Positions 347 through 23,504 of a DNA stretch of 64,000 bases are shown here, piece after piece. A program made the translations under genes and the position numbers. The stretch comes from Maricaulis sp. Its GTDB lineage: Bacteria; Pseudomonadota; Alphaproteobacteria; Caulobacterales; Maricaulaceae. The DNA lies in contig NZ_JAEPOL010000002.1 of assembly GCF_017642925.1 (NCBI RefSeq), positions 138,457 to 202,456 on the forward strand, written 5' to 3'. A model generated the notes under the pieces. It did not search any database. It saw nothing but the letters and a program-made list of their open reading frames with translations, and was not told the origin of the DNA. Positions within the stretch are counted from its first letter, which is position 1. The number at the start of each line of letters is the position of its first letter.

Positions 347-904
347 TCAGGCGGCCTGGGGCAGATGGAGAAGCTCCGCCGCGGTCTCGCGCCAGTAGGG
401 ATCGACCAGTCGGGCCTCGAGCAGGCTGGCGCGATAACGATGATCGCGGGCTGCGCTGTGATCGACCCGACCGGAGGCGGCGAAGGCCAGCCCGCGCAAG
501 CGGCTGGCTTCGGTGATGATGCGGCGGGCCTCCACGTCGGAGACGACGGGCTGCTGCCAGAGGACGATTCCTGCCCGGATCTCGCCACCGAGAACCAGGC
601 CGAGATCGCCGTCCTGAATGACGACGATACGCGGGTGAAAGCGCAGCGTGTCGTCCGCGCTGACACGAATGTCGCCGCGCGCGACGCGCTGGCTGGCAAG
701 GATCATGGCTTCTTCGGCGGATGCGGATTGACCGATGACGACCGTGCGGTCGAATTCATCGGCCTCGTCGAGGCCCTCGTAACCGGCCGTGCCCATGCAG
801 GAGAGGCGCAACGGCAGCTTTTGGGCGTAGCGCAGCCGGGGCAACACCTCGCGCGTGATGACGTCGCCGACCAGGGTAAAACCGGGGTGGTGGGAAAGGG
901 TCAT
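347..904 (-). CDS. Hypothetical protein (185 aa)
   Basis: Protein-like ORF, same orientation as neighbours, GGAG SD and leader repeat A upstream. Confidence 0.7.
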   Translation of the reverse strand: MTLSHHPGFTLVGDVITREVLPRLRYAQKLPLRLSCMGTAGYEGLDEADEFDRTVVIGQSASAEEAMILASQRVARGDIRVSADDTLRFHPRIVVIQDGDLGLVLGGEIRAGIVLWQQPVVSDVEARRIITEASRLRGLAFAASGRVDHSAARDHRYRASLLEARLVDPYWRETAAELLHLPQAA

Positions 905-912
905 GGGGTTTG

Positions 913-1001
913 CTCCACGACGGGCGGCGGAAGCCTCTCTTCCACCTGCAACCCGTCACGGCCAACCGACCCACCCTCTCACTCTCCTGTTGTCGGGGTG
1001 G
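913..1001 (-). repeat. Conserved structured leader repeat, copy A
   Basis: Plus-strand blocks CTCC-ACGACGGG ... AGCCTCTCT ... CAACCCGTCACG (949-960) ... CCCTCTCACTCT, shared with copies B-D. Confidence 0.85.
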
Positions 1002-1002
1002 A

Positions 1003-1371
1003 TCAGCACCACGGTTCGCGGCGTCCCGCCCAGGTTCGGGCCAGTCCCTCGCTGACGAGAATGTCTCCGACGTCTCGTCCCTCGACGCGGATCGCCGCCA
1101 GGGTCCGGCCATAGCGGTCGGTTCCCTGGTGCAGGATTTCGATCCGCTGGCCTTTCAGAAGCTCGGCCAGCCTGATCTTCGATTGCAGCGCGAGGTCGGT
1201 TTCATACGCGCATTGCCCCTCGATCTCGGGGGCGTCGATGTTGAAGATCCGGACGGCCTCAGATTGCCGCGTCGTGCCCAAGCGAATGGAATCGCCGTCC
1301 CAGACGCGGATTTCGGCCGGTTCGCATGACGCCGTGCAGAGCAGAATGGAAACGACAATATGGCTGAGCAT
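1003..1371 (-). CDS. Thermonuclease (SNase-like) family protein
   Basis: Motifs VWDGDSI, VRIFNIDAPE, DRYGRTLA, LVSEGLAR; hydrophobic N-terminus. Confidence 0.9.
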   Translation of the reverse strand: MLSHIVVSILLCTASCEPAEIRVWDGDSIRLGTTRQSEAVRIFNIDAPEIEGQCAYETDLALQSKIRLAELLKGQRIEILHQGTDRYGRTLAAIRVEGRDVGDILVSEGLARTWAGRREPWC

Positions 1372-1546
1372 GGCGAATGGCTTTCATCTTGATGGAGCGA
1401 AATCGGCGTGATCGCCGACGGTTCTTTCCGATGCGGGTCGAGATCGCAATGCCGTCCGGCACGCAAGCGGCAATCGGCGGCGATTGTCGGGAGAAGGCCC
1501 GACTGCGCTTGGGCACCGGGCCTTGGGAGTGAGGCGCTTTCGCGCC

Positions 1547-1711
1547 TCAGCTCCACGGATCGAGTTCCAGCTTCACCATCTCCTCGTCGCCGTCGAACTC
1601 GTCGGCCGGCATGGCGGAGTGGGTTCCATCTCCGGCCTGAAACACGACGATGGAAACCATCAGCGTGGTGGCGAGGCTGGCGGCGAAGGCGGTGGCATCT
1701 GCATAGGACAT
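1547..1711 (-). CDS. Small hypothetical protein (54 aa)
   Basis: MSYADATAFAASLATTLMVSIVVFQAGDG...; the protein-like 3' part of ORF 1547-2155, start reassigned to ATG 1711. Confidence 0.55.
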   Translation of the reverse strand: MSYADATAFAASLATTLMVSIVVFQAGDGTHSAMPADEFDGDEEMVKLELDPWS

Positions 1712-2138
1712 GGGTTCCGGCTCCTGTCTTGGGAGGCGGGGGACCATCCCCCGCGCGACAGGCGCCCGAAGTGTCCGACCGGATCTGCAATCACCCTCGC
1801 GCGTTCGGCTCGTCCGAATCCGCGAGGGCGGCACGCTCGCGTAAGCCGACCCCTCGTGGGTTGATTGACAAAGAGACGGTCGGACCAAGGTTCGCGAATG
1901 GAAGCGGGGGTGGTGCTTCGCCTCTGACAGGATGCCGGGAATCCCGTCATAGATGCCCCGCCGCGCCAGCCTCGTTGCCGGGCTGATCTTCAGGATGTGT
2001 TTCAGGCTGGAGATGGAATCCGCTGTCCCGCTGCGAGAAGCTGACGGCGCAATGGTGACGCTGGACCTCGATCCGTCGCTGGCTGCGCGGCGATACCCCG
2101 ATGGCCCGGTCTGCGCCAGGCACAGGCGTAAGGGCTGC

Positions 2139-2438
2139 TCAGTCCCATAGCCCATCGGCGATCTCGCGGGCGATAATTGCCCGAGCCTCCATCATCACGT
2201 CGTCGCCGGACGTGTCGATATGACCGTAGAACCGTGTCCGGGCGCCGTGCGCGCTCCAGTCCGCATAGCGGCAATATTCGCACCTATCGAGCCGGAAGGC
2301 GCGCATGTCCTCGGCCCAATGAGGCTTCGGCTCCACGAAGACGGTGACGCCGCCGCGCGTTTCCTCCCACGGAAGCGATCGCTCCATGGGAGGGTTGCGG
2401 CGGTCGTCAGCGAAGATTTCATCAACCGTCATGATCAT
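2139..2438 (-). CDS. Hypothetical protein (99 aa)
   Basis: Start overlaps the upstream gene's stop (ATGA coupling at 2435-2438); protein-like composition. Confidence 0.65.
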   Translation of the reverse strand: MIMTVDEIFADDRRNPPMERSLPWEETRGGVTVFVEPKPHWAEDMRAFRLDRCEYCRYADWSAHGARTRFYGHIDTSGDDVMMEARAIIAREIADGLWD

Positions 2439-2764
2439 GCGCCACCACCATCGGCGCTTGGAACGGGGCTGTCCGGATCGGTGGAATCAGGAGGATCGCG
2501 TTTGATTTCACACGCCTTCGTCCAAAAGAACTCGTCGCGCTCCAACATGCGCTCGAAATACACGTCGCCGATCTGGTCGTCGGGCGGCAGATCGTCATCG
2601 AAGGCGTCAGTCCACCATTCTTTGGCGATCTCTGTGCGCCAGTGCATCGCCTCTTCGCTGTCGAGAAAAGCGCGCACATCGGTTCCATAGCGATGTTCAT
2701 AAAGGGCGACATGAACAGTCTGAGGAATGGGCTGGCCGGGGTTGGGATGGTTGTCGGATGGCAT
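2435..2764 (-). CDS. Hypothetical protein (109 aa)
   Basis: Start reassigned to ATG 2764 (MPSDNHP...) behind a CAGGAG SD; acidic, aromatic-rich globular sequence. Confidence 0.65.
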   Translation of the reverse strand: MPSDNHPNPGQPIPQTVHVALYEHRYGTDVRAFLDSEEAMHWRTEIAKEWWTDAFDDDLPPDDQIGDVYFERMLERDEFFWTKACEIKRDPPDSTDPDSPVPSADGGGA

Positions 2765-2778
2765 GATCCTGTCTCCTG

Positions 2779-2807
2779 AAAAAAAAGGCCCGGCCGGGGC
2801 CGAGCCT
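2779..2807 (-). terminator. Intrinsic terminator downstream of the parB-like gene
   Basis: GC hairpin AGGCTCGGCC-CC-GGCCGGGCCT followed by a T run on the minus strand. Confidence 0.65.
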
Positions 2808-2858
2808 ATATGGGGTGGGGAGTAAGCGGGGCGACCGAGACCGCCCCGCTGGTGCGCG

Positions 2859-5021
2859 TCACTCGGCGGCGACCAAGGCCACCGGATCGTCGGCGGCATC
2901 GGCCGCGTTCTCATCGTCACCGGCGAGGAAATCGGGCAACGCCATGCCATTCTCGTCCTGATCGGCTGAGCCATCCACGGCCTGCGCGTCCACGGTGGGG
3001 CGCAGCGGCTCCGGCAGCCAGCCGGTATCGGCCAGAAGCCGCTCGGCCTCCTTCGCCATGTCGCCCTTCTTGAGATGCGCGATGAGATCGGCCGCGCGAT
3101 CGCCGGCGCCTTCACGCACCGCTTCGAGGATGCGAGTCTTGGTCACGCGGCCGAGGTAGTTCTCGACCGTGGGTTTCCAGCCGGCTTCGACAAGATCGAG
3201 GCCGGTGGCCTGCGCCAGCCGTTCGGCCTCGGCCATGCGGCGGTCGAGACCGTGCTGCGAGATGCCATTCCCCGAATAGGGGTTCGGCCGCTCATAGAGC
3301 GCGTTGACGCCGAAGCTGACGCAATGGGCGAGCAGCGCCAGGCGGCTGGCATCGTCGAGGCCGTCGATCCAGCCCCAGAGCCTGTCGTCATCACCGGAGG
3401 GAATGTCGCCCCGCCAGGCGTCCGCGCGTTCGTCGATCATCTTCGCGGCGGCACTGTCCGCGAGCCCGGTCGCATCGGCCGGGAGATAGATGTGACGCAC
3501 GGCGGCATAAAGGCTCGTTCCCGAGGTGGACGTGCGCTCGAAGGTATCGAGAACCAGCTTGTGCAGCAGGGCCGTCATGGCGACGTGCGGATTCTCGGCG
3601 AGCGCATTGCGCAGCGCCAGCGTCCGCCATGCGGTCAGGTCCGTCACCAGCCGCTCGGGCAGCGGTTTGACAGCATCGTCCTCTTCCTCGTCGGCGTCCG
3701 GGACCGGCTCGCCGCCGACAGTGATGACGGCGCGCTGCACGGCATCAGGGTCGGACGGGTCCGCGCCCTCTCCGGCATCCTCGCCATCGACCGTCTCGGG
3801 TTGCTCATCCTCGCGGCGGACGTAGCCGCTGCTGACGATCAACTCGCCCTCGCGGCCGATACTGACGAAAACACCGGCACGGGCGATGTCTTCCGGCGCG
3901 AAGGTGACGGGCCGGTTCTCGAAGGCTTCCAGCTCGGCCTCGATCTCCCCGAGACGCTGATCGGCCTCATCGGGGAGGTCGTCGGCTTCGGCATACTTGG
4001 CTTCGAGTTCGTCATACTCGTCGCGCAGCGCCTCGCGCGTGGCGCGCTCCTCTTCGGTCAGTTCCTGGGTCACACCGGCCAGCTTGCGCAGGCCGTTGGT
4101 GTGGCCGTAGGGCAGCTCGACCGCCGCGTCGATCCACTTCCAGCCTTGACCGGCGATCTCGTCGGCAATGGCGCGCAGCTTCTCGTCGACCAGGCGGTCG
4201 AGGAGCGTGACGTCCTGCAACCAGCCGCCGTTTTCCTCGGAGAAGAGGTCGCGCAGCACCGGGCCGCCCGCTGTCTCATAGGCTTCGACGCCGATAAAGC
4301 GGGCGCGCTTATCGGCGGCCGGAACCGTGGTCTCGGTCAGCATATTGCGGATCTGCCAGGGCTCCTTCTGCCACGACGTGCTGATGCGCTCCCAGACCTG
4401 ATGCTGGCGCTCGTGGTCGGGGTTGACGGTGAAGGCTTCCAGCATCGCCAGCGTCATCTCGTTGCGCGCATAGGCATCGTGTAGTGTCGGCGCGACGGTG
4501 GCGAGGCGCAGACGCTGCATGATGTAGCGCGGCGTGGTCCGCCAGGCGTCGGCGATCTCCTCCTTCGACATGCCCATGTCGAACATCCGCTTGAACGCCT
4601 TGAACTGGTCGAGCGGATGCAGGGCGAGGCGCAGCAGGTTCTCGGCCAGCGAGTCGTCGACGGCCGAGGTCTTGGCGTCGGCCTTCTTGACGATGCAAGG
4701 CACAAGCCCTTCGGCCGGGAAGCGACCGGCTTCCACAAGGCGCGCGATGGACCTGTAGCGGCGGCCGCCTGCGGGTGTCTCGAAATCGCCGGTCTCATTG
4801 CCGTCCTCGTCGAATACGGCGCGGACATTGAGACCTTGCACGAGATCTTCCCGCCGGTCGATGTCATGGGTCAGGTCGTCCAGGCCGGCCTCCACGTCGA
4901 TCTCGCGGACGTTGCTATCCGACAGTCGGATGCGGTTGAACGGAATATCGCGCGCCCGCGAGAACTCGATCATCTGAAGGGCGGGCTTCTTTTTCTTGGC
5001 AGCTCGGGCCATGGTGGTCAT
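2859..5021 (-). CDS. ParB/RepB/Spo0J-family N-terminal domain protein (720 aa, ICE/plasmid leading-region type)
   Basis: GLNVR...AGGRRYRS...SLAENLLRLALHPLDQFKAF ParB/Srx fold motif, then HTH and a long acidic C-terminal region. Confidence 0.9.
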   Translation of the reverse strand: MTTMARAAKKKKPALQMIEFSRARDIPFNRIRLSDSNVREIDVEAGLDDLTHDIDRREDLVQGLNVRAVFDEDGNETGDFETPAGGRRYRSIARLVEAGRFPAEGLVPCIVKKADAKTSAVDDSLAENLLRLALHPLDQFKAFKRMFDMGMSKEEIADAWRTTPRYIMQRLRLATVAPTLHDAYARNEMTLAMLEAFTVNPDHERQHQVWERISTSWQKEPWQIRNMLTETTVPAADKRARFIGVEAYETAGGPVLRDLFSEENGGWLQDVTLLDRLVDEKLRAIADEIAGQGWKWIDAAVELPYGHTNGLRKLAGVTQELTEEERATREALRDEYDELEAKYAEADDLPDEADQRLGEIEAELEAFENRPVTFAPEDIARAGVFVSIGREGELIVSSGYVRREDEQPETVDGEDAGEGADPSDPDAVQRAVITVGGEPVPDADEEEDDAVKPLPERLVTDLTAWRTLALRNALAENPHVAMTALLHKLVLDTFERTSTSGTSLYAAVRHIYLPADATGLADSAAAKMIDERADAWRGDIPSGDDDRLWGWIDGLDDASRLALLAHCVSFGVNALYERPNPYSGNGISQHGLDRRMAEAERLAQATGLDLVEAGWKPTVENYLGRVTKTRILEAVREGAGDRAADLIAHLKKGDMAKEAERLLADTGWLPEPLRPTVDAQAVDGSADQDENGMALPDFLAGDDENAADAADDPVALVAAE

Positions 5022-5109
5022 CTCCGCGACGGGCGGTCGTGAGCCTCTCTCTCGACCTCCAACCCGTCACGAAGCGAAGCGCCGCCCTCTTACTCTAAGA
5101 GGGCAGCGC
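5022..5109 (-). repeat. Conserved structured leader repeat, copy B
   Basis: CTCC-GCGACGGG ... GAGCCTCTCT ... CAACCCGTCACG (5060-5071) ... GCGCCGCCCTCTT-ACTCT-AAGAGGGCAGCGC hairpin. Confidence 0.85.
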
Positions 5110-5149
5110 TGTCGCAAGGACACGGGCTATTCAGCTTTGGAACAGCTCG

Positions 5150-5536
5150 TCAGTCGGCCTCGGCAACATTCGCGTTCGGGTATTCCCGCCGGTCGAAGAC
5201 CGTGGCGGGGCCATGATCAGCGTGTTGAAGGGCGCCCTCTATGAAGAAGTGCTGCGGATCGAACCCTTGGTAGAAGGCATCGACCGCGGCATCCTCATCC
5301 TCTGCTTCGACCTCCTGGACGAAGCAGACCCACATCGCCCGCCGCTGGCGGACGAAGTAGCGGTTCATGGCGGGGACGCACTCGAATACCTCGTTGATGT
5401 CGCCGTCCGTCGCGGCGGCTTCAAACTGCTCGACGGCATGATTCCGGTCCGCGGCCTTGCACAGCCAGAACTCGTTCTCGGCGCCATGGCAGATGAGGAA
5501 GGTTTTCAGGGGCGTGGGTGACTGAATAGCAGGCAT
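5150..5536 (-). CDS. Hypothetical protein (128 aa)
   Basis: Start reassigned to ATG 5536 (MPAIQSPTPLKTFLICHG...) after GGAG SD and leader repeat C. Confidence 0.65.
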   Translation of the reverse strand: MPAIQSPTPLKTFLICHGAENEFWLCKAADRNHAVEQFEAAATDGDINEVFECVPAMNRYFVRQRRAMWVCFVQEVEAEDEDAAVDAFYQGFDPQHFFIEGALQHADHGPATVFDRREYPNANVAEAD

Positions 5537-5543
5537 CTGCGTT

Positions 5544-5631
5544 CTCCGTGGCGGGCCGCCGGGAGCCTCTCTCCCGGCACCCAACCCGCCACGACCCAAA
5601 GCGCCGCCCTCTGTCTCCAGAAGGGCGGCGC
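5544..5631 (-). repeat. Conserved structured leader repeat, copy C
   Basis: CTCC-GTGGCGGG ... GAGCCTCTCT ... CAACCCGCCACG (5582-5593); stem shows a compensatory change relative to the other copies. Confidence 0.85.
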
Positions 5632-5691
5632 TGCGAGCCGGAAAATCGCAAAGCCGGAAATCCGGCTATGTGCATCGGCGAGTTTCAGCAG

Positions 5692-6642
5692 TCACACCCC
5701 GCACATGCCCTCGCATTCGTTCGGCCAGAGGTCGAGCTGGCCATGATCGGCGGCTGTCGAAAGATCGGCCAGATCGAGCGGGACGGCGGAACGGTGAAGA
5801 TAGACCTCGCCGCGAATGCCCCGGAAGCCCGTGCGGATGGCGGCATCGACCGACACGGCATCGGTCCACCCTTCGGGATCGTGGTCACGCATATGCCGCC
5901 AATAGGCATTGGAATGGAACGGGCAGCCGATGCAGGCGCTCTTGGGCGGGAGAGGATAGCCATGCCGCTCCAGCCAGCGCAGGCAGTCCTGGCGGGTCAT
6001 GCCCCGTTCGATCAGGGGCCAGCGGTTGACCTGCCAGTCCTCAAACGAGGGCTTCATGCGCAACGCCTCGTCGAGAGAAATCCCGATCCATTGCTCGGCG
6101 ACTGGCGATCCGGGCGAGCGGCGCCCCGCAATGCCAAGGAGTTCGCGCACCTTCCGCCGGATTGGGGTGATCTTGTAGTCCTTGGTGCATTGGCGGCGGA
6201 TCATGCCAATGCTGATCCGCTCACCTGCCAGGACGCGGGAACCGACAATGACGGGTTCGCCGTTCTCGTCTTCATCATAGACGGGTAGTTCAGTCCCAGC
6301 GGGCGCGACCGTGCGTGTGAAGGCGGGGATCGAGGCCCACCGCTCGCCGCGTGCGCCGGTGAGCAGATCGGCGCGGATATCCCCGGCCGAGACGATATGG
6401 ATGGGGAATGGCAGGACATTCGGCGATCCCAGCCAGGCAAGATGCTCATAGACCGCGTTCGGCTCCCAGCCGGTGTCCGCGAAGATCGCGCAATCCGGCA
6501 TCGGGCCGATCTCGCCATGGGCAGCCATGAGGGCGAGCGTGGTCGACTGGACGCCGGCGCCGAGGCTGAGGACACGCAGGCGGATCTCGGCCGCCTGCGC
6601 AGGATCGGGGATCGAGCCGGGAAAGGCGAGCGCGTTCATCAT
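5692..6642 (-). CDS. PAPS-reductase-like / PP-loop (adenine nucleotide alpha-hydrolase) family protein
   Basis: LRVLSLGAGVQSTT PP-loop, FADTGWE, RQCTKDYKI, SACIGCPFH, C-terminal ECEGMCGV. Confidence 0.8.
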   Translation of the reverse strand: MMNALAFPGSIPDPAQAAEIRLRVLSLGAGVQSTTLALMAAHGEIGPMPDCAIFADTGWEPNAVYEHLAWLGSPNVLPFPIHIVSAGDIRADLLTGARGERWASIPAFTRTVAPAGTELPVYDEDENGEPVIVGSRVLAGERISIGMIRRQCTKDYKITPIRRKVRELLGIAGRRSPGSPVAEQWIGISLDEALRMKPSFEDWQVNRWPLIERGMTRQDCLRWLERHGYPLPPKSACIGCPFHSNAYWRHMRDHDPEGWTDAVSVDAAIRTGFRGIRGEVYLHRSAVPLDLADLSTAADHGQLDLWPNECEGMCGV

Positions 6643-7592
6643 GCTGCCTCCCGCTCATCGTCGGCCGCACCGAGCCCGTCCGCATCTGGCAGGAAGGACA
6701 AAATCCAGTCGGCCGCTTTGCTCGCCTGCGAGGCAGCGCGGACGACGGCCCGGTTGTCCTCGCGCAGCACTTCGAGCCAGGAGGCGATGTAATCCGCATG
6801 GCGGACGGTCGGCACAATGCCGAGGGAGGCACAGCAGAAGGCGGCCGAGATTTCCGCCACCAGCTCCTCGAAAGCGTATTTCCTGGTGCCGAAGGAACCG
6901 GAAAAATCGCGGTTCAGCCGGGACGCATGGCCTGTCGCATGACCCAGCTCATGCAGGGCCGTCCGGTGCCAGTTGATCGGCTCGAAATAGGCTTGCGGCG
7001 GCGGAACGACCACATGGTCGAGGGCCGGGACGTAGTAGGCGCGGTCGCCGCCGATGCGGAAGTCGATGCCGGTCGCCTTGATGAGCGCCTCGACCCTCGG
7101 CTCGACCAGTCCGGATGGCGGAGGCGGCATGGCCACGGCAATGTCCTCGGGCAGGCCCTCGCACTGCGCGGTGTTGAACACCGTGAACCGCTTCAGGAAC
7201 GGGATCTTCCCCGGTTCCTCGCCGGTCTCTCGCGCCCGCCGCTTCTCGTCCTCGGGCGTGAAGCGATCGGCATAGACGACGGTTGTGCCGCACTCGCCCT
7301 TGCGGACATTGCCGCCGAGCGAAAGCGCCTGGCGGAAGGTGAGCCAGCCCTGTCCGGGGAAGCCGTGCTGGACGACGGCGCCCCACAGGATGAGGATATT
7401 GATGCCGCTATAGGCGCGGCCGGTGCTGGCGTTCTGCGGCAGGCCGAGCGGGGCCTGGGCCGTGGCCTTGCCCCAGGGCTGGACCCAAGGAAAGCGCCCG
7501 GCCTCAAGCTCGGCGATGATCTTGTCGGTGATCTCGTCGTAAAGGTTCGCCCGATCCGCGCCGGAACGGGGGGTATGGTCGTATCTGGACAT
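6639..7592 (-). CDS. ardC: ArdC-family anti-restriction ssDNA-binding protein (DUF1738 + zincin-like)
   Basis: YDEITDKIIAELEAGRFPWVQPW, NASTGRAYSGIN, WLTFRQA, ALHELGHATGH, YAFEELVAE. Confidence 0.93.
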   Translation of the reverse strand: MSRYDHTPRSGADRANLYDEITDKIIAELEAGRFPWVQPWGKATAQAPLGLPQNASTGRAYSGINILILWGAVVQHGFPGQGWLTFRQALSLGGNVRKGECGTTVVYADRFTPEDEKRRARETGEEPGKIPFLKRFTVFNTAQCEGLPEDIAVAMPPPPSGLVEPRVEALIKATGIDFRIGGDRAYYVPALDHVVVPPPQAYFEPINWHRTALHELGHATGHASRLNRDFSGSFGTRKYAFEELVAEISAAFCCASLGIVPTVRHADYIASWLEVLREDNRAVVRAASQASKAADWILSFLPDADGLGAADDEREAA

Positions 7593-7599
7593 CGCGGTT

Positions 7600-7674
7600 C
7601 TCCGCGACGGGCGCCGGAGACCTCTTCTCCAGCCCTCAACCCGTCACGGCAAACCCCGTCTGCACTCTCACTCT
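7600..7674 (-). repeat. Conserved structured leader repeat, copy D
   Basis: CTCC-GCGACGGG ... GAGACCTCTTCT ... CAACCCGTCACG (7637-7648) ... CTCTCACTCT directly upstream of ardC. Confidence 0.85.
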
Positions 7675-7693
7675 AAAGCGGCGCTGCCGCCGA

Positions 7694-8161
7694 TCACGGC
7701 GGCGCGGTGCCGTGCCCAACCGCAAGTTCGTCCGTGGTCGGCGGTTCGAACATCTTCGACCAAGCGAGAAGATCGTTCGGATCGACAGCCGCATCGGCAG
7801 GCGCATCGCGGTTGCGGGCGATGATCCGACGCTGCAACTCCTCGACGGGGACGTCGAGATAGTGAAGCCGGGTCTCGCAGCCGAGCGACTGCGCAACCGC
7901 CCGGTAGGAATCGCGCTCCTCTCTTGACCAGAAGCCGTTCTCCAGAATGACGTCGTTTCCGGCGGCCAGAAGGCGTTGGGCCAGACGCCATTGCAACTGC
8001 TCGACACGCGCGCGGCCGCCCTCGTCGTAGAGCTGGAATCCGAGCGTGGACATCCATTCATCGGGAGAGAGGCGAAGCCCCTTTCCCTGATTCTCAAGCT
8101 GCCGTGCCAATGTGGTCTTGCCCGAGCCGGGAAGCCCACAGATGAGATGAAGTATAGGCAT
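7694..8161 (-). CDS. AAA_33-like P-loop ATPase/kinase
   Basis: ILHLICGLPGSGKTTLARQL Walker A, LSPDEW, VILENGFWSREER; start reassigned to ATG 8161. Confidence 0.85.
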   Translation of the reverse strand: MPILHLICGLPGSGKTTLARQLENQGKGLRLSPDEWMSTLGFQLYDEGGRARVEQLQWRLAQRLLAAGNDVILENGFWSREERDSYRAVAQSLGCETRLHYLDVPVEELQRRIIARNRDAPADAAVDPNDLLAWSKMFEPPTTDELAVGHGTAPP

Positions 8162-8411
8162 TGGGACAGTGTATCGCGAGGCGAGCGCGTCCACCACATC
8201 ACTGAGTCCGGCTGAGACCTACCCAGGGGGCGTTGCGGGGTCTCCCCGCAGAAGGGGGTGTGCCGGCAACGCAGTGCCGGCCAGGGGGAAGGCTTTCCCC
8301 CGCAAGAACCGACAACCGCAAAAGCGTAGAAGTGCAAGTAAGCAATACCTGACTTCACCTGCCGCTATAGCCAAACGAGCAACCTGCTTTCGACGTTCGA
8401 CCATCTTGGCA

Positions 8412-8430
8412 TATCCCCTACAGGGGGATA
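8412..8430. promoter_or_regulatory. CsoR/RcnR-type operator
   Basis: Inverted repeat TATCCCC-tacag-GGGGATA immediately upstream of the repressor gene; G/C-tract palindromes are typical of this family. Confidence 0.65.
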
Positions 8431-8434
8431 GGAT

Positions 8435-8722
8435 ATGACGATGACCAAGCCATCCCAAACTCACCAATCCCACCCGGAGATCGTCAAGCGGCTGAAGCGC
8501 GCCGATGGTCATCTTCGCGGCGTCATCGAGATGATCGAGGGCGGGCGGCCGTGCCTCGACATCGCCCAGCAGCTCCATGCCGTCGAGAAGGCTATCGCCC
8601 AGGCCAAGAAGACACTGATTCAGGATCACCTCGACCATTGCCTCGAAGAAGTGGTCGGGCCGCTCGGGCGTGATCGGCGGCAGTCGATCGACGAGTTCAA
8701 GGAAATAGCGAAGTATCTGTGA
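8435..8722 (+). CDS. nreA: Metal-sensing repressor, CsoR/RcnR family (NreA-like)
   Basis: HPEIVKRLKRADGHLRGVIEMIEGGRPCLDIAQQLHAV...DHLDHC metal-ligand pattern; coupled to an MFS gene. Confidence 0.85.
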   Translation: MTMTKPSQTHQSHPEIVKRLKRADGHLRGVIEMIEGGRPCLDIAQQLHAVEKAIAQAKKTLIQDHLDHCLEEVVGPLGRDRRQSIDEFKEIAKYL

Positions 8723-10035
8723 TGTTGGCGATCCTCGAAAACCGGACCTATCGCCACCTCTTTCTGGCACAGGTCATCGCACTGGTGGGAACCGGCCTTG
8801 CGACGGTGGCGCTGGGCCTGCTGGCTTTCGAACTGGCGGGGGCGGAGGCCGGCGCGGTGCTGGGGACCGCGCTCGCCATCAAGATGATCGCCTATGTCGG
8901 TGTCGCGCCGGTCGCATCGGCATTCGCCGAGCGTGTGCCGCGGCGCGCCATGCTGGTGGCGCTCGATCTCGTCCGCGCCGCCGTTGCCGTTTTCCTGCCT
9001 TTCGTCACCGAGATTTGGCAGGTCTATGTTCTGATCTTCGTGCTGCAATCGGCCTCGGCCGCCTTCACGCCGACCTTCCAGGCGACGATCCCCGACATCC
9101 TGCCGGACGAGAAGGAATACACGCGCGCGCTGTCGCTCTCCCGGCTGGCCTACGATCTGGAAAGCGTCGTCAGTCCGATGCTGGCGGCGGCACTTCTCGC
9201 CTTCATCTCGTTCCATAGCCTATTCGCCGGCACGGTGATCGGCTTCCTCGTCTCGGCGGCTCTGGTGATCTCGGTCGTCCTGCCGAGTCCGAAACCGTCG
9301 AAACCTCGTGGTATCTACGACCGCACGACGCGCGGCATCCGCATCTATCTGGCGACGCCGCGCCTGCGCGGGCTGCTGGCGATCAACCTCGCAGTCGCCT
9401 CGGCGGGCGCGCTGGTGATCGTGAATACGGTCGTTTACGTGCAGGCTGTCTATGGCCTCGACAACCAGGCGATGGCCCTGGCCCTCGCGGCGTTCGGTGG
9501 CGGCTCGATGGTCGCGGCGCTTGCGCTGCCGAAGCTGCTGGACTCGATTCCAGATCGAACGGCGATGCTCGGTGGCGCATCGCTGCTGGCGGTGGGAACA
9601 CTGGCGGCGGCGGCGCTGCCGGGCTACGGCTGGCTGTTGCCGCTGTGGTTCCTGCTCGGTGTCGGCTATTCCACGGCACAGACGCCATCCGGCCGGCTGC
9701 TCCGGCGCTCGGCCAATCCCGAAGACCGGCCGGCGCTGTTCGCCGCGCAGTTCGCGCTTTCCCATGCCTGCTGGCTGATCGCCTATCCGCTTGCCGGGTG
9801 GGCCGGCGCGACGCTCGGCCTGCCGATGACGGCGATCATTCTGGCCGCGCTGGCCGCTGTCGCGATCGGCATCGGCTTCGCCGTCTGGCCTGCCGACGAT
9901 CCAGAGGTGCTTGAACACGGTCATGCCGATCTGTCGGCCGACCATCCGCATCTCGCAGAAGCTGGGCATGGTCGACGCCATGCCCATGCCTATGTGATCG
10001 ACGACATGCACGCGGCTTGGCCGCGTGAGCGCTGA
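8719..10035 (+). CDS. nreB: MFS transporter, NreB-like nickel efflux
   Basis: MFS with multiple TM helices (YRHLFLAQVIALVGTGL, FTPTFQATIPD) and a His-rich C-terminus (HGHADLSADHPH...HAHAY). Confidence 0.85.
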   Translation: MMLAILENRTYRHLFLAQVIALVGTGLATVALGLLAFELAGAEAGAVLGTALAIKMIAYVGVAPVASAFAERVPRRAMLVALDLVRAAVAVFLPFVTEIWQVYVLIFVLQSASAAFTPTFQATIPDILPDEKEYTRALSLSRLAYDLESVVSPMLAAALLAFISFHSLFAGTVIGFLVSAALVISVVLPSPKPSKPRGIYDRTTRGIRIYLATPRLRGLLAINLAVASAGALVIVNTVVYVQAVYGLDNQAMALALAAFGGGSMVAALALPKLLDSIPDRTAMLGGASLLAVGTLAAAALPGYGWLLPLWFLLGVGYSTAQTPSGRLLRRSANPEDRPALFAAQFALSHACWLIAYPLAGWAGATLGLPMTAIILAALAAVAIGIGFAVWPADDPEVLEHGHADLSADHPHLAEAGHGRRHAHAYVIDDMHAAWPRER

Positions 10036-20697: not shown

Positions 20698-21962
20698 TAC
20701 TGGTCTCCCATGCCCTGCGGCATGTTCGGGCTGCCGCCGGTCAGGCGTCGTAGCTGGATGTCGGACTGATGGATGGCGAACAGGGCATCGACCGAGCGCA
20801 GCCGCGCATCGATCAGGGCCTGCTGCACATCATAGATTTCCAGGAAGGAGAAACTGCCGCGGGCAAAGCCGGTCTGGGCCTGTTCCAGGGCGGTCTGCAG
20901 AGGCGGGATCACCGTCTCTTCCAGGGCCGCCAGTTCGCCGGCTGCAGCCTGACGGCGCAGGATCAGGGCCTGGACCTGTCGCTGGACGACCCGTTCGCGG
21001 GCAGCCAGGTCGGCATCAATCGCCGCCGCTTCAGACCGGGCCGAGGCGATATTGGCCTGATTGGCATTCCACACCTGCAGCGGAATGGAGAAACGAACCC
21101 CCAGCGCCACATCATTGGAGGACTGGAAGTGACGCAGCTCCAGACCGACATTGGCGTCCGGCACGGCGCGGGCCGTTTCCAGACCGATCTCCGCATCACT
21201 GCGGGCTCTCTGGGCTCGCAGGAGGGCAATTTCCGGCGTGTCCCGGTCCGCCGGGCTGGCACCCAGATCACCCGGAGACAGGAAGCTCTGCGTGTCCACC
21301 GTGAAGTCCGGCAGGCCGCCCCAATAGGAGGCCAGGATGGTGGCACTTGTCGCGACACGACGGCGGGCCAATCCGGCCTCGATCCGGGCTTCGGCCAATC
21401 GGGCCTCTATCCGGTCCCGCGCCATGCGCGGGTCACGGGCGGCCTGCACGCGGCGGTCGACAATGGCGGCCAGGGCTTCCAGCGAAGCAATCCGGTCTTC
21501 CGCGATGGCATGGCGCATGCGCTCGGCCTGGGTGTCGAGATAGGCCAGCTCGACCTGTTGCATCAGATCGCGCCGGGCAATCTCGGCCTCCACGACCCGA
21601 AGATCGCGGTCCCGTTCGGCCAGGGTTGAGCGGGCTTCACGGTCACCCCCACGCTCCCAGGGCTGCATGACGCCGACAGCGGCTTCCGCCTCGTTAAAAA
21701 GATTACGGTCCCCGGTTCCCAGCACGCCTTCGGAGGTGAAATCGAGGGTCGGATTGAGCCGCCGGGCCGCACCGTCAATGCGCTGGGCACTGGCATCGAT
21801 ACGGGCATCGGCAGCGGTTAGTTCAGGAGCTTCGACGAGGGCTCGCGCCAACGCCTCGTCCAGGCTCAGCACGGACGGCTGAGCGCTTTGGGCCACCGCA
21901 TTTGCGGGTGCCACAAGGATTTGCATCGCGACCAGCGCGAGCAAACATGATGAGGTTCGCAT
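20697..21962 (-). CDS. czcC: TolC-family outer membrane factor (CzcC-like)
   Basis: Signal peptide, LSLDEALARAL..PEL, GFARGSFSFLEIYD; first gene of the CBA operon. Confidence 0.88.
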   Translation of the reverse strand: MRTSSCLLALVAMQILVAPANAVAQSAQPSVLSLDEALARALVEAPELTAADARIDASAQRIDGAARRLNPTLDFTSEGVLGTGDRNLFNEAEAAVGVMQPWERGGDREARSTLAERDRDLRVVEAEIARRDLMQQVELAYLDTQAERMRHAIAEDRIASLEALAAIVDRRVQAARDPRMARDRIEARLAEARIEAGLARRRVATSATILASYWGGLPDFTVDTQSFLSPGDLGASPADRDTPEIALLRAQRARSDAEIGLETARAVPDANVGLELRHFQSSNDVALGVRFSIPLQVWNANQANIASARSEAAAIDADLAARERVVQRQVQALILRRQAAAGELAALEETVIPPLQTALEQAQTGFARGSFSFLEIYDVQQALIDARLRSVDALFAIHQSDIQLRRLTGGSPNMPQGMGDQ

Positions 21963-22026
21963 GGAAAGTTGTCCTGTAAACGAATAGCAACGCGCAGCCG
22001 GTCGTGCCGACTGCCAGTTCAGGTCG

Positions 22027-22416
22027 TTACAGGATCGATTTGGGAGGCCGTCTCAGCCCGTCCAATCCAGGATCAGGCTCCGGTACGACATGACTCAGGG
22101 ACCGCACCGGTCCCGTCGTTTCAGTGGCTTGCAGGTTCATGGACGCGGCCATCGGCGCACCATCCATGTGGACATGGGCATGCAGGATCACGTCCCCGGT
22201 TTCATCCGCATCGACATCCGCCGCCTTGCGCATCTTGGCCAGATCAATCTCACGATCCGATCCCCGATGATGATGCGCGTCCTCATGATCATGATCGACC
22301 GCCACATCCGTATGATGATGCTCCGCCCCGACCTCATGCGCATGCGCCTCCGTCCCGGACGCAGGCCCGAGCCAGGCAAGCATGGCAATCAGCAGAAATG
22401 TCAGAGCGTGCCGCAT
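22027..22416 (-). CDS. Secreted His-rich protein (CzcI-like position)
   Basis: Start reassigned to ATG 22416: MRHALTFLLIAMLAWLGPASG signal peptide, then HAHE..HHHTDVAVDHDHEDAHHH. Confidence 0.65.
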   Translation of the reverse strand: MRHALTFLLIAMLAWLGPASGTEAHAHEVGAEHHHTDVAVDHDHEDAHHHRGSDREIDLAKMRKAADVDADETGDVILHAHVHMDGAPMAASMNLQATETTGPVRSLSHVVPEPDPGLDGLRRPPKSIL

Positions 22417-22730
22417 AGGCCCCCGAACGGAAATCAACACACCATTAGTGCTGCCATGAGCGGAAAAGGTCAAGAATGATGGTCGGGATCGGTTGAAGCG
22501 GACCGACGACACACACCGCCTTGACCCCGGCACCGGCAGCGCACCACGATTTGGTACATGGAAATCAACAACGCGCCATGTGCCTAGTGAACACACCCAA
22601 CGTAAAATATTGAAATTTAACCACGTTAAAGAACGCAAAAAATTCGCCCGCGTTCTTTGCCTTGGCACCATGTTTGATGTGGTCGGAAGTCGCCCGGGAT
22701 GATTCGGGCGAAGCTTCATGACAGAAGAGG

Positions 22731-23504
22731 CTAGCCGGGTTCGATCCAACCGACGCCGGTTAGCTCGCTAGAAAACTCGTCAAAAAGACGGACCTCATCG
22801 GCTGTGAGCTTCCCATCTGCTGCGATCAATTGATGTGCGGTCACGAGAAATTTCTCAAGAATGATCGGAGTTTCTGCCCGGATCATCTCTATAGCCTCCA
22901 TCATCTGCTCGGTAGTTGGCCTCAAGCGGCGGTAGCTTGTTCCAAGCTCGTTGCATTCATCCAGTGTGAGATCGTCGCAAAGCTGTTCGCAATGCTGGCA
23001 GAGAATCGCGAATTCGTCGGGGTGCATATAGCCATCGCAGCGCGACAAACAGGCCAGGAGGATTGCATGTGGGCGTGCCCGCTCACGGGCGACATTGACT
23101 CTGCTCGCACGGGGGCTGTTCACGGGCCTGGGCAGTTCCGCGTCAAAGCCTAGAGTTTCCACTAAGAATGGCTTGGTCTCATGCACGACCCCGTCGAAGT
23201 CTATACAGCACTCGATTCTATCAAGCAGAAAGTGGCGTGGGGCATTTCGTTGGTGACAATGAGCGGACAAATAGGGGTTGCCTTTGGCATTGTACTTTAC
23301 TGAGTGCACCGTGATGCTGCGGCATGACATATCGTTCTTTGAATCGAGATACTCGATCATGAAGGACTGACCCTCACACTCAATTTCCCCGCCACGTGAG
23401 TCACCGATAGGCCTATCATCGACTTCAGGAATTACCGATGGGCGAGGCTCCGGCGCACCGGATCCTCCGCGTCGCCAGGCAGACAGGAAAGAGTGGCCAT
23501 CCAT
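22731..23504 (-). CDS. WYL-domain + TerB-like domain fusion protein
   Basis: IEYLDSKNDMSCRSITV...YLSAHCHQRNAPRHFLLDRI matches the WYL pattern; LLACLSRCDGYMHPDE and LIAADGKLTADE match the TerB repeat motifs. No wHTH seen. Confidence 0.7.
   Translation of the reverse strand: MDGHSFLSAWRRGGSGAPEPRPSVIPEVDDRPIGDSRGGEIECEGQSFMIEYLDSKNDMSCRSITVHSVKYNAKGNPYLSAHCHQRNAPRHFLLDRIECCIDFDGVVHETKPFLVETLGFDAELPRPVNSPRASRVNVARERARPHAILLACLSRCDGYMHPDEFAILCQHCEQLCDDLTLDECNELGTSYRRLRPTTEQMMEAIEMIRAETPIILEKFLVTAHQLIAADGKLTADEVRLFDEFSSELTGVGWIEPG

Follow-up and report, generated by a model that had tools for sequence, protein, structure and literature searches.

A widespread hairpin leader predicted to occlude the Shine-Dalgarno sequence of establishment genes in alphaproteobacterial conjugative elements

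To our knowledge, the timing of establishment-gene expression has been worked out in few enterobacterial and Bacillus plasmids, and there it is transcriptional, relying on single-stranded DNA (ssDNA) promoters or on repressor operators. The ssDNA promoter Frpo folds on the transferred strand, which serves as the template, and extends over about 300 nt; its stem includes a -35, a -10 and an UP element. The CUP repeats of the IncN plasmid pKM101 and Reg576 of the Bacillus plasmid p576 (PMC6294495) are promoters and operators in duplex DNA and are bound by a repressor. Here, a leader repeat of ~90 nt is described from a 64,000-nt stretch of Maricaulis sp. DNA (contig NZ_JAEPOL010000002.1, positions 138,457 to 202,456; referred to as the window), in which four intergenic copies were found, all on the minus strand, in gene sense and each running to an ATG. 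Copies A to D precede the genes of a 185-amino-acid (aa) hypothetical protein (family F185), a ParB-like protein, a 128-aa hypothetical protein and ArdC, respectively. We propose, with a probability of roughly 0.58, that the repeat is a conserved cis-acting mRNA leader, located in a 5'-untranslated region (5'-UTR) or between cistrons, by which an establishment-gene regulon of alphaproteobacterial conjugative elements shares its translation control.

The four copies lie within a few bases of where a first-pass annotation of the window had placed them and show 76-79% mean column identity over about 90 nt when aligned in gene sense. From the 5' end, the leader consists of box 1 (AGAG(U/G)(G/A)AGAG), a semi-conserved linker with a U-rich end and the 5' arm of helix P1 (CGUGACGGGU). 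Between the arms of P1, a 5'-side bulge U(U)GRR of 4-6 nt, the helix P2 (8-9 bp, variable sequence) and an AGAGG loop closed by A-U and G-C pairs are found, and the P2 3' arm is followed by 0-2 unpaired nt. The leader ends with the P1 3' arm (GCCCGUCGCG), GAG, which completes the Shine-Dalgarno sequence (SD) GGAG, a spacer of 5-9 nt and the AUG. P1 is a near-invariant 10-bp helix with two conserved U.G pairs. The previously noticed pairing of GTGACGGG with CCCGTCGY was recovered, as were the compensatory pair GTGGCGGG/CCCGCCAC of copy C and the restriction of G.U wobbles to the gene-sense strand. Two refinements could be added: the inner helix P2 covaries among the four copies too, and GGAG is not just adjacent to the stem but part of the helix base. 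Its first G is the closing base of P1, and the remaining bases pair with the U-rich linker in most copies. The SD is thereby placed in the base of an extended, irregular hairpin with a GC-rich stem of about 20-25 bp; in isolation, such hairpins have energies of about -30 to -44 kcal/mol. Sense-strand folding gave this hairpin for all four copies, at z-scores from -3.5 to -6.4, and folding of the antisense strand is weaker by 10-20 kcal/mol.

A covariance model was made from the four copies. Its scores for them ranged from 86 to 100 bits (E 1e-21 to 1e-25), compared to 15 bits for the best of the other matches within the 64 kb of the window, so that the four-fold repeat is far beyond chance. 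Copy D (7590-7679, minus strand; 96.6 bits), the leader of ardC, contains box 1 at 7665-7674, the U-rich linker at 7649-7656, the P1 5' arm at 7639-7648, the bulge and P2 5' arm at 7626-7638, the AGAGG loop at 7621-7625, the P2 3' arm at 7613-7620, the P1 3' arm at 7603-7612, the SD GGAG at 7600-7603 and the ATG at 7590-7592. Its hairpin has a folding energy of -43.5 kcal/mol, with the SD and the spacer paired to GGUUUGCC. Copy C (5534-5623, minus strand; 99.8 bits), the leader of the 128-aa open reading frame (ORF), carries a box 1 variant, GGAGACAGAG, at 5609-5618, the P1 5' arm CGTGGCGGGT at 5584-5593, the loop at 5566-5570, the P1 3' arm GCCCGCCACG at 5547-5556, the SD at 5544-5547 and the ATG at 5534-5536; its P1 shows compensatory changes relative to copies A, B and D. 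Copy B (5010-5101, minus strand; 89.4 bits) leads the ParB-like gene, with box 1 at 5087-5096, the P1 arms at 5062-5071 and 5025-5034, the loop at 5044-5048 and the SD at 5022-5025. Here the whole SD lies inside the helix, and the anti-SD CUUC is located within 5071-5079. Two in-frame ATGs are available to the ParB-like gene: that at 5021 abuts GGAG, and that at 5012-5010 lies 9 nt past GGAG and aligns with the starts of the other copies. The second is probably the start codon. Copy A (902-990, minus strand; 85.8 bits), the leader of the 185-aa ORF, has box 1 at 976-985, the P1 arms at 951-960 and 916-925, the loop at 934-938, the SD at 913-916 and the ATG at 902-904.

Homologues of the leader were used to evaluate this fold. 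In 124 distinct sequences, 97.4% of cells held a standard pair and all 8 pairs of P2 showed double, compensatory changes. Such values were attained in none of 500 column shuffles, and pairing fell to 34-44% when the partner columns were displaced by 1-3 positions. The same covariation picture was obtained with a sample found by the model alone, in which no pattern constraint applied; in this sample the P1 sequence itself was conserved (in 40 or more of 46), and four of its pairs showed compensatory changes on rare occasions. RNAalifold independently predicted the same fold and in addition the first pair between linker and SD. The four pairs that extend the helix from the linker into GGAGA, in which G faces C or U and A faces U, were formed in 97%, 57%, 85% and 73% of 145 distinct copies. 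An ATG terminates 167 of 174 copies. On the sense strand, the non-Watson-Crick cells comprised 375 G.U and 31 A.C combinations. Because these cells are mostly G.U, and because the two U.G pairs of P1 are conserved, the structure is, as judged from the alignments, under selection on the sense strand.

The motif was not encountered outside the Alphaproteobacteria. With the covariance model, no fifth copy was detected in the whole 3.6-Mb assembly, whereas, among 401 genomes from the same order, 40 had matches; these represent 15 of 59 genera and mostly contain 2-7 copies each, 1-5 kb apart. In a phylum-wide sample, 24 of 401 genomes had matches, all of them in Alphaproteobacteria. Scanning species-representative genomes with a pattern yielded at least 119 stretches of DNA with the motif; the 80 matches listed belonged mostly to Rhodobacterales, Sphingomonadales, Hyphomicrobiales, Caulobacterales, Acetobacterales and Rhodospirillales. 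It was further present in 74 plasmid or chromid records, including those of Bradyrhizobium, Mesorhizobium, Sinorhizobium and Paracoccus, and among the matches listed the organisms were alphaproteobacterial throughout. No family of Rfam 15 matched the window at the gathering score, none overlapped positions 700-8500 at E<=10 and none matched five other loci at E<=0.1. Likewise, no description of the motif was found in the literature, including work on leading regions, ArdC, ParB and ICEMlSym, DUF1738 and zygotic induction. The motif is hence a widespread, undescribed structured leader of Alphaproteobacteria. A dispersed repeat of the repetitive extragenic palindrome (REP) type or resembling a miniature inverted-repeat transposable element (MITE) was discarded, as the genome has 4 copies, every one in gene sense with a terminal ATG. 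Isolated P1 half-sites were not enriched in the window (20 found, 15 expected), and the idea that they act as parS-like sites was dropped for that reason.

The SD is predicted to be largely paired. The median probability of GGAG being unpaired was 0.04; for 300 controls, genes from this genome that also have a GGAG, it was 0.30 (Mann-Whitney p = 2e-17). As a predicted fold, the motif is thus a conserved and covarying RNA hairpin that contains the SD of its cistron, which is what defines an SD-occluding leader. Under the proposed mechanism, the leader would keep translation initiation of the served cistrons low by default and under one common control. Since the sequences of loop, bulge and P1 are invariant, docking of a trans-acting factor is suggested, and these elements might form the recognition surface for an opener or a clamp. 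Three candidate openers can be envisaged. Processing by RNase III or RNase E, within the 23-26-bp helix or the U-rich linker, might remove the anti-SD arm, as in the leaders of T7 0.3 and lambda N. A protein that binds RNA, whether element- or host-encoded, might act as Com does on Mu mom or in the manner of a translational repressor. Finally, the 30S subunit might stand by on the SD-like purine tracts; this candidate is considered because the loop AGAGAGG is complementary, with one G.U pair, to CCUUUCU-3' at the 16S rRNA end of relatives (CCUCCUUUCU).

Several other devices were considered for the leader and set aside. An RNA thermometer was rejected, since the predicted accessibility of the SD is flat between 15 and 55 C (median probability of being unpaired 0.02 to 0.10, in silico). 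By inspection, the bulge does not form a kink-turn, as the non-bulged strand has 0-2 nt and tandem G.A pairs are missing. CsrA or Hfq sites were dismissed, the loops of most classes being devoid of GGA and of (ARN)n repeats. The possible leader peptide GTG-ACG-GGT-TGA is confined to copy D and not conserved, and a complementarity of P1 to 16S rRNA positions 1402-1409 was dropped because such an 8-mer match is expected by chance.

A number of points weigh against translation control by the leader. In the ArdC and DUF932-like classes, 2-3 of the 4 SD bases are predicted to be paired and the probability of GGAG being unpaired is about 0.25, near the control value of 0.30; in the ParB class it is 0.007. 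The SD itself is invariant, so its pairing can yield no covariation evidence. P1 is almost invariant across orders, more than RNA pairing requires, which could reflect a superimposed constraint at the DNA level or from protein recognition. No trans-acting factor for the leader was identified. On a plasmid of Indioceanicola (locus L167), opposite-strand cargo consisting of dmeF and a metal repressor gene lies between ardC and parB, leaving only about 90 nt from the divergent cargo gene to box 1. Because opposite-strand cargo can separate motif-bearing genes in this way, the modules may each need, carry or adjoin a promoter of their own; a promoter scan recognised no sigma-70-like site at any copy, in agreement with the first-pass annotation, which had seen no such boxes. 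Finally, the presence of the leader in RNA, together with its transcription start sites and processing sites, is deduced from the wobble asymmetry alone.

The explanation that survives best besides translation control is an RNA processing or stability element. As a cleavage site for RNase III or RNase E, or as a stabiliser at the 5' terminus, it would split a polycistronic transcript into stable monocistronic mRNAs and determine how abundant each of them is, with the pairing of the SD being incidental. With its asymmetric internal loop, the continuous helix of the motif (23-26 bp) resembles the early RNase III sites of phage T7. The position of a U-rich single-stranded linker 5' of a very stable hairpin corresponds to the usual layout of an RNase E cut with a protective hairpin; moreover, the motif is intercistronic and its fold is insensitive to temperature. 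However, the sequence preferences of RNase III are weak, and a processing site would leave the invariant AGAGG loop, box 1 and the sequence of P1 unexplained, whereas the complementarity of the linker to GGAGA and the low accessibility of the SD point to translation. We regard processing as an unlikely account of the motif; it is compatible with translation control and could be the unlocking step.

Alternatively, the motif might be an operator-promoter module in double-stranded DNA (dsDNA), a repeated site for an element-encoded repressor or activator that brings about zygotic induction by transcription, and the hairpin a by-product of an inverted repeat. Known establishment regulons are controlled in this manner (PMC6294495), and parallels would be CUP/ArdK of IncN plasmids, Reg576 of p576 and the KorB sites of RK2. 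Conservation of the P1 arms, of box 1 and of the loop concerns the sequence and not just the pairing, GAGAG tracts recur about 44 bp apart, and the persistence of the modules after cargo insertion on the Indioceanicola plasmid suggests self-contained expression units. A DNA operator would nevertheless have no need for a P2 that varies freely and yet stays complementary in all 8 pairs, and the 12 to 1 excess of wobbles on the sense strand is an asymmetry invisible to duplex DNA. The empty promoter scan, the lack of half-site enrichment and the fixed register of the motif to SD and ATG also argue against such a module, which appears improbable.

The strand on which the hairpin could act depends on the direction of transfer. 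Beyond the genes of the window, the backbone of the element continues on the minus strand with Strawberry-notch helicase, DUF7146/Toprim, RepA, ParA, methylase, DUF2840, S26 TraF and SLT genes and ends with a MobA/VirD2-DUF3363 relaxase gene, an order typical of elements of the ICEMlSymR7A kind. In ICEMlSymR7A, the origin of transfer (oriT) is located between the traF-msi107 operon and rlxS (PMC11963761). A candidate oriT with repeated GCACCGTGC palindromes was found at the corresponding site between the SLT (msi107-like) and relaxase genes (contig positions about 119617-119846; 1161-1390 of locus L155). There, the antisense strand carries the RP4-like nick motif TATCCTG|C at a distance of 143 nt from the relaxase ATG, on its upstream side. 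The motif is kept at -139 to -144 in six further elements whose relaxases are 53-82% identical, which makes 7 elements in all, while a look-alike on the sense strand occurs in this genome only. Because TATCCTG|C is conserved on the antisense strand, and by analogy with RP4, the antisense strand would be the one transferred and would be the template of the leader genes. This fits plasmid leading regions, whose genes are read from the transferred strand (PMC11541004). In selected motif-bearing genomes, all relaxase matches that shared a contig with the motif were downstream of it on the same strand at a distance of 10-30 kb. A leading-region setting is plausible, since all of these genes share the orientation of the relaxase gene, precede it by 10-30 kb and would have the transferred strand as template.

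With this polarity the transferred strand is the wrong one for the hairpin, so the fold would have to act in RNA. An ssDNA element on the transferred strand, serving as a Frpo-like promoter or a single-strand initiation (ssi) priming site before complementary-strand synthesis, would fit the template orientation known from plasmid leading regions (PMC11541004), a hairpin abutting the SD, where a start at the stem base would yield a short leader, and the Toprim/DUF7146 primase-like protein encoded by the element, but it is very improbable, as the conserved U.G pairs become C.A mismatches on the template strand (about 3 per copy), antisense folding is weaker to the extent given above, the duplex has too little length to accommodate a -35/-10 pair, neither box being present, and the sense strand, if transferred instead, could not template these genes. 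The first-pass annotation had left the choice between an ssDNA promoter and a cis-regulatory RNA. The former is not supported for these reasons; the latter is supported by the strong covariation in homologues, a check that the annotation had suggested, by the lack of a matching Rfam family and by the fold being specific to the sense strand.

The genes served by the leader were characterized in the window and in other elements. In the window, ardC (6639-7592, minus strand) encodes an ArdC N-terminal domain (PF08401, 1e-43) and a zincin-like metallopeptidase domain (PF18818, 6e-51). It is followed by a 316-aa ORF (5692-6642, minus strand) that has neither a leader motif nor a Pfam match and is likely translationally coupled to ardC, judging by the ATGA overlap with the ardC stop codon (6639-6642). 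The 128-aa hypothetical protein (5150-5536, minus strand) belongs to no Pfam family. The ParB-like protein of about 717 aa (2859-5012, minus strand) and the F185 protein (347-904, minus strand) are each encoded ahead of a terminator, an intrinsic one at 2786-2807 and another at 309-327; because of these terminators, copies D, C and B are internal to one terminator-bounded unit and copy A belongs to the next. Within the 3' region of parB (2785-2849, minus strand), two GC hairpins separated by UUACUCCCCACCCCAUAUA and ending in U8 gave a sub-threshold Yfr1-like Rfam match (33 bits, E 0.001). Though shaped like a 3'-UTR small RNA, this region is probably just a terminator.

Across elements, the proteins encoded behind the motif belonged in nearly all cases to ArdC (about 317 aa, ~40 copies), a 398-aa family whose match to DUF932 is weak (35), ParB-like proteins (about 700 aa, 31 complete and in addition truncated copies) or F185 (8 homologues in other elements); RadC and AlpA are examples of singletons. 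As a rule, the parB-like gene comes after ardC or the DUF932-like gene, each with its own leader, and F185 lies a few kb further on. The motif accompanies ParB-like homologues from about 44% identity upwards, and it was absent upstream of those with 43% identity or less, including homologues from other proteobacterial classes. The GC3-based caller (G+C at third codon positions) used for upstream genes proved too strict, with no gene for 75 of 147 copies, so that only the spacing of the ParB class was used; here, the leader typically starts about 40 nt past the upstream stop codon.

Upstream of the main hairpin, copies A to C contain a further hairpin, P0 (965-1007 in copy A, 5074-5115 in copy B and 5600-5632 in copy C, all minus strand), of which box 1 supplies the loop and the 3' arm; in copy B it reads GCGCUGCCCUCUU-AGAGU-AAGAGGGCGGCGC. 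A hairpin bearing the AGAGT block had been noted here before and is indeed present. In homologues P0 is frequent, with a register that varies relative to box 1, and sometimes absent. It was therefore rejected as a universal hairpin, RNAalifold also giving no consensus for it. In some leaders of the parB class (L017, L018, L019 and similar ones), P0 is a 16-bp GC hairpin and GUUUUUC follows right before P1. Hairpin and U-tract together resemble an intrinsic terminator, with the U-tract doubling as the anti-SD strand, and such leaders may combine attenuation with translational control.

H3 (8226-8301, minus strand) is a GC-rich block of 76 nt with three hairpins, GGGGAAAGCCTTCCCC, GGCCGAG..CTCGGCC or GCCGGCG..CGCCGGC, and TGCGGGGAGACCCCGCA, followed by CGCCCCC. 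Compensatory versions of the middle hairpin exist. In MAFFT alignments of the 160 nt upstream of each gene class, nothing beyond box 1 was conserved except H3, and a conserved upstream promoter was rejected on these alignments. H3 adjoins box 1 of the first leader copy in other elements (L225, L226, L049, L068 and about 60 others). In the window, the two are separated by the gene of a 154-aa AAA_33 or zeta-toxin-like P-loop kinase (7694-8158, minus strand), which has no leader motif. This gene looks like an insertion into the region upstream of ardC, because other elements have nothing at that position. This genome contains a single H3; the block is present in 16 of 401 genomes of the class, and Rfam gave no match to it. 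Its antisense strand folds better by about 3 kcal/mol in 26 of 28 cases, a comparison confounded by G-richness, and mismatches of the middle hairpin, counted by eye, were of the antisense-wobble type by about 7 to 1, with many others not being wobbles. Possible roles of H3 are those of a promoter or operator region, of the leader's 5' part or of a single-strand initiation site. Upstream of H3, a CsoR/RcnR-type metal repressor and a metal efflux transporter are encoded at 8435-10035 (plus strand); the same cargo pair lies at 21528-22789 of the Indioceanicola locus. The flanks of leader modules thus appear to be hot spots for cargo insertion.

If the leader controls translation as proposed, it would tie ardC, the DUF932-like gene, the large ParB-like gene and F185 together as members of one regulon and flag the latter three as co-regulated partners of ArdC. 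We tentatively extend this to an entry regulon. As long as the element is resident, the SDs of F185, of the ParB-like gene and of ardC or the DUF932-like gene would be locked; a specific factor, be it a nuclease cut, an RNA-binding protein of the element or class-specific 30S docking, would unlock them jointly. This would amount to translational zygotic induction, with H3 as a possible ssDNA initiation or promoter site of the operon. This wider scenario is speculative and rather unlikely. As a hairpin of 60 nt, the motif would nonetheless offer a handle on post-transcriptional control of the establishment of integrative and conjugative elements (ICEs), and it is a candidate for a new Rfam family.

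In comparison with known systems, Frpo and the ssi sites of F-like and IncI leading regions share with the motif a hairpin directly upstream of establishment or anti-restriction genes and a transferred strand that serves as template. By description the motif is set apart from Frpo, as it folds on the sense strand, has a helix of about 20-25 bp, lacks promoter boxes and includes the SD. CUP repeats and Reg576 likewise place one repeat before several establishment genes, including ardC. From CUP repeats, which are described as a sigma-70 promoter with a repressor operator, the motif differs in having no promoter boxes, and compared to both systems it is a covarying, strand-specific hairpin fixed to the SD. 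With fourU and ROSE thermometers, the latter also alphaproteobacterial, it has in common a U-rich strand that pairs with the SD (57-97% of copies here), but its helix is 3-4 times more stable than that of a thermometer and no Rfam match to ROSE or fourU was obtained. The traJ leader of F-like plasmids, the target of FinP, is also a structured leader that contains the ribosome binding site (RBS) of a conjugation gene; the motif, however, shows no evident promoter or terminator for an antisense RNA, its antisense strand is a poor folder and the traJ and FinP families of Rfam gave no match. In terms of the proposed mechanism, the closest match would be found in phages: the translation-inhibition stem of Mu mom, which Com opens, and the leaders of lambda N and T7 gene 0.3, which RNase III processes. 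These likewise place an RBS-occluding hairpin on an anti-restriction or early gene; they have no sequence or family relationship to the motif, in which, unlike in these phages, one leader family serves 2-4 genes per element in hundreds of elements. Taken together, the family is new, and its kind, an SD-occluding leader or an operator, is known.

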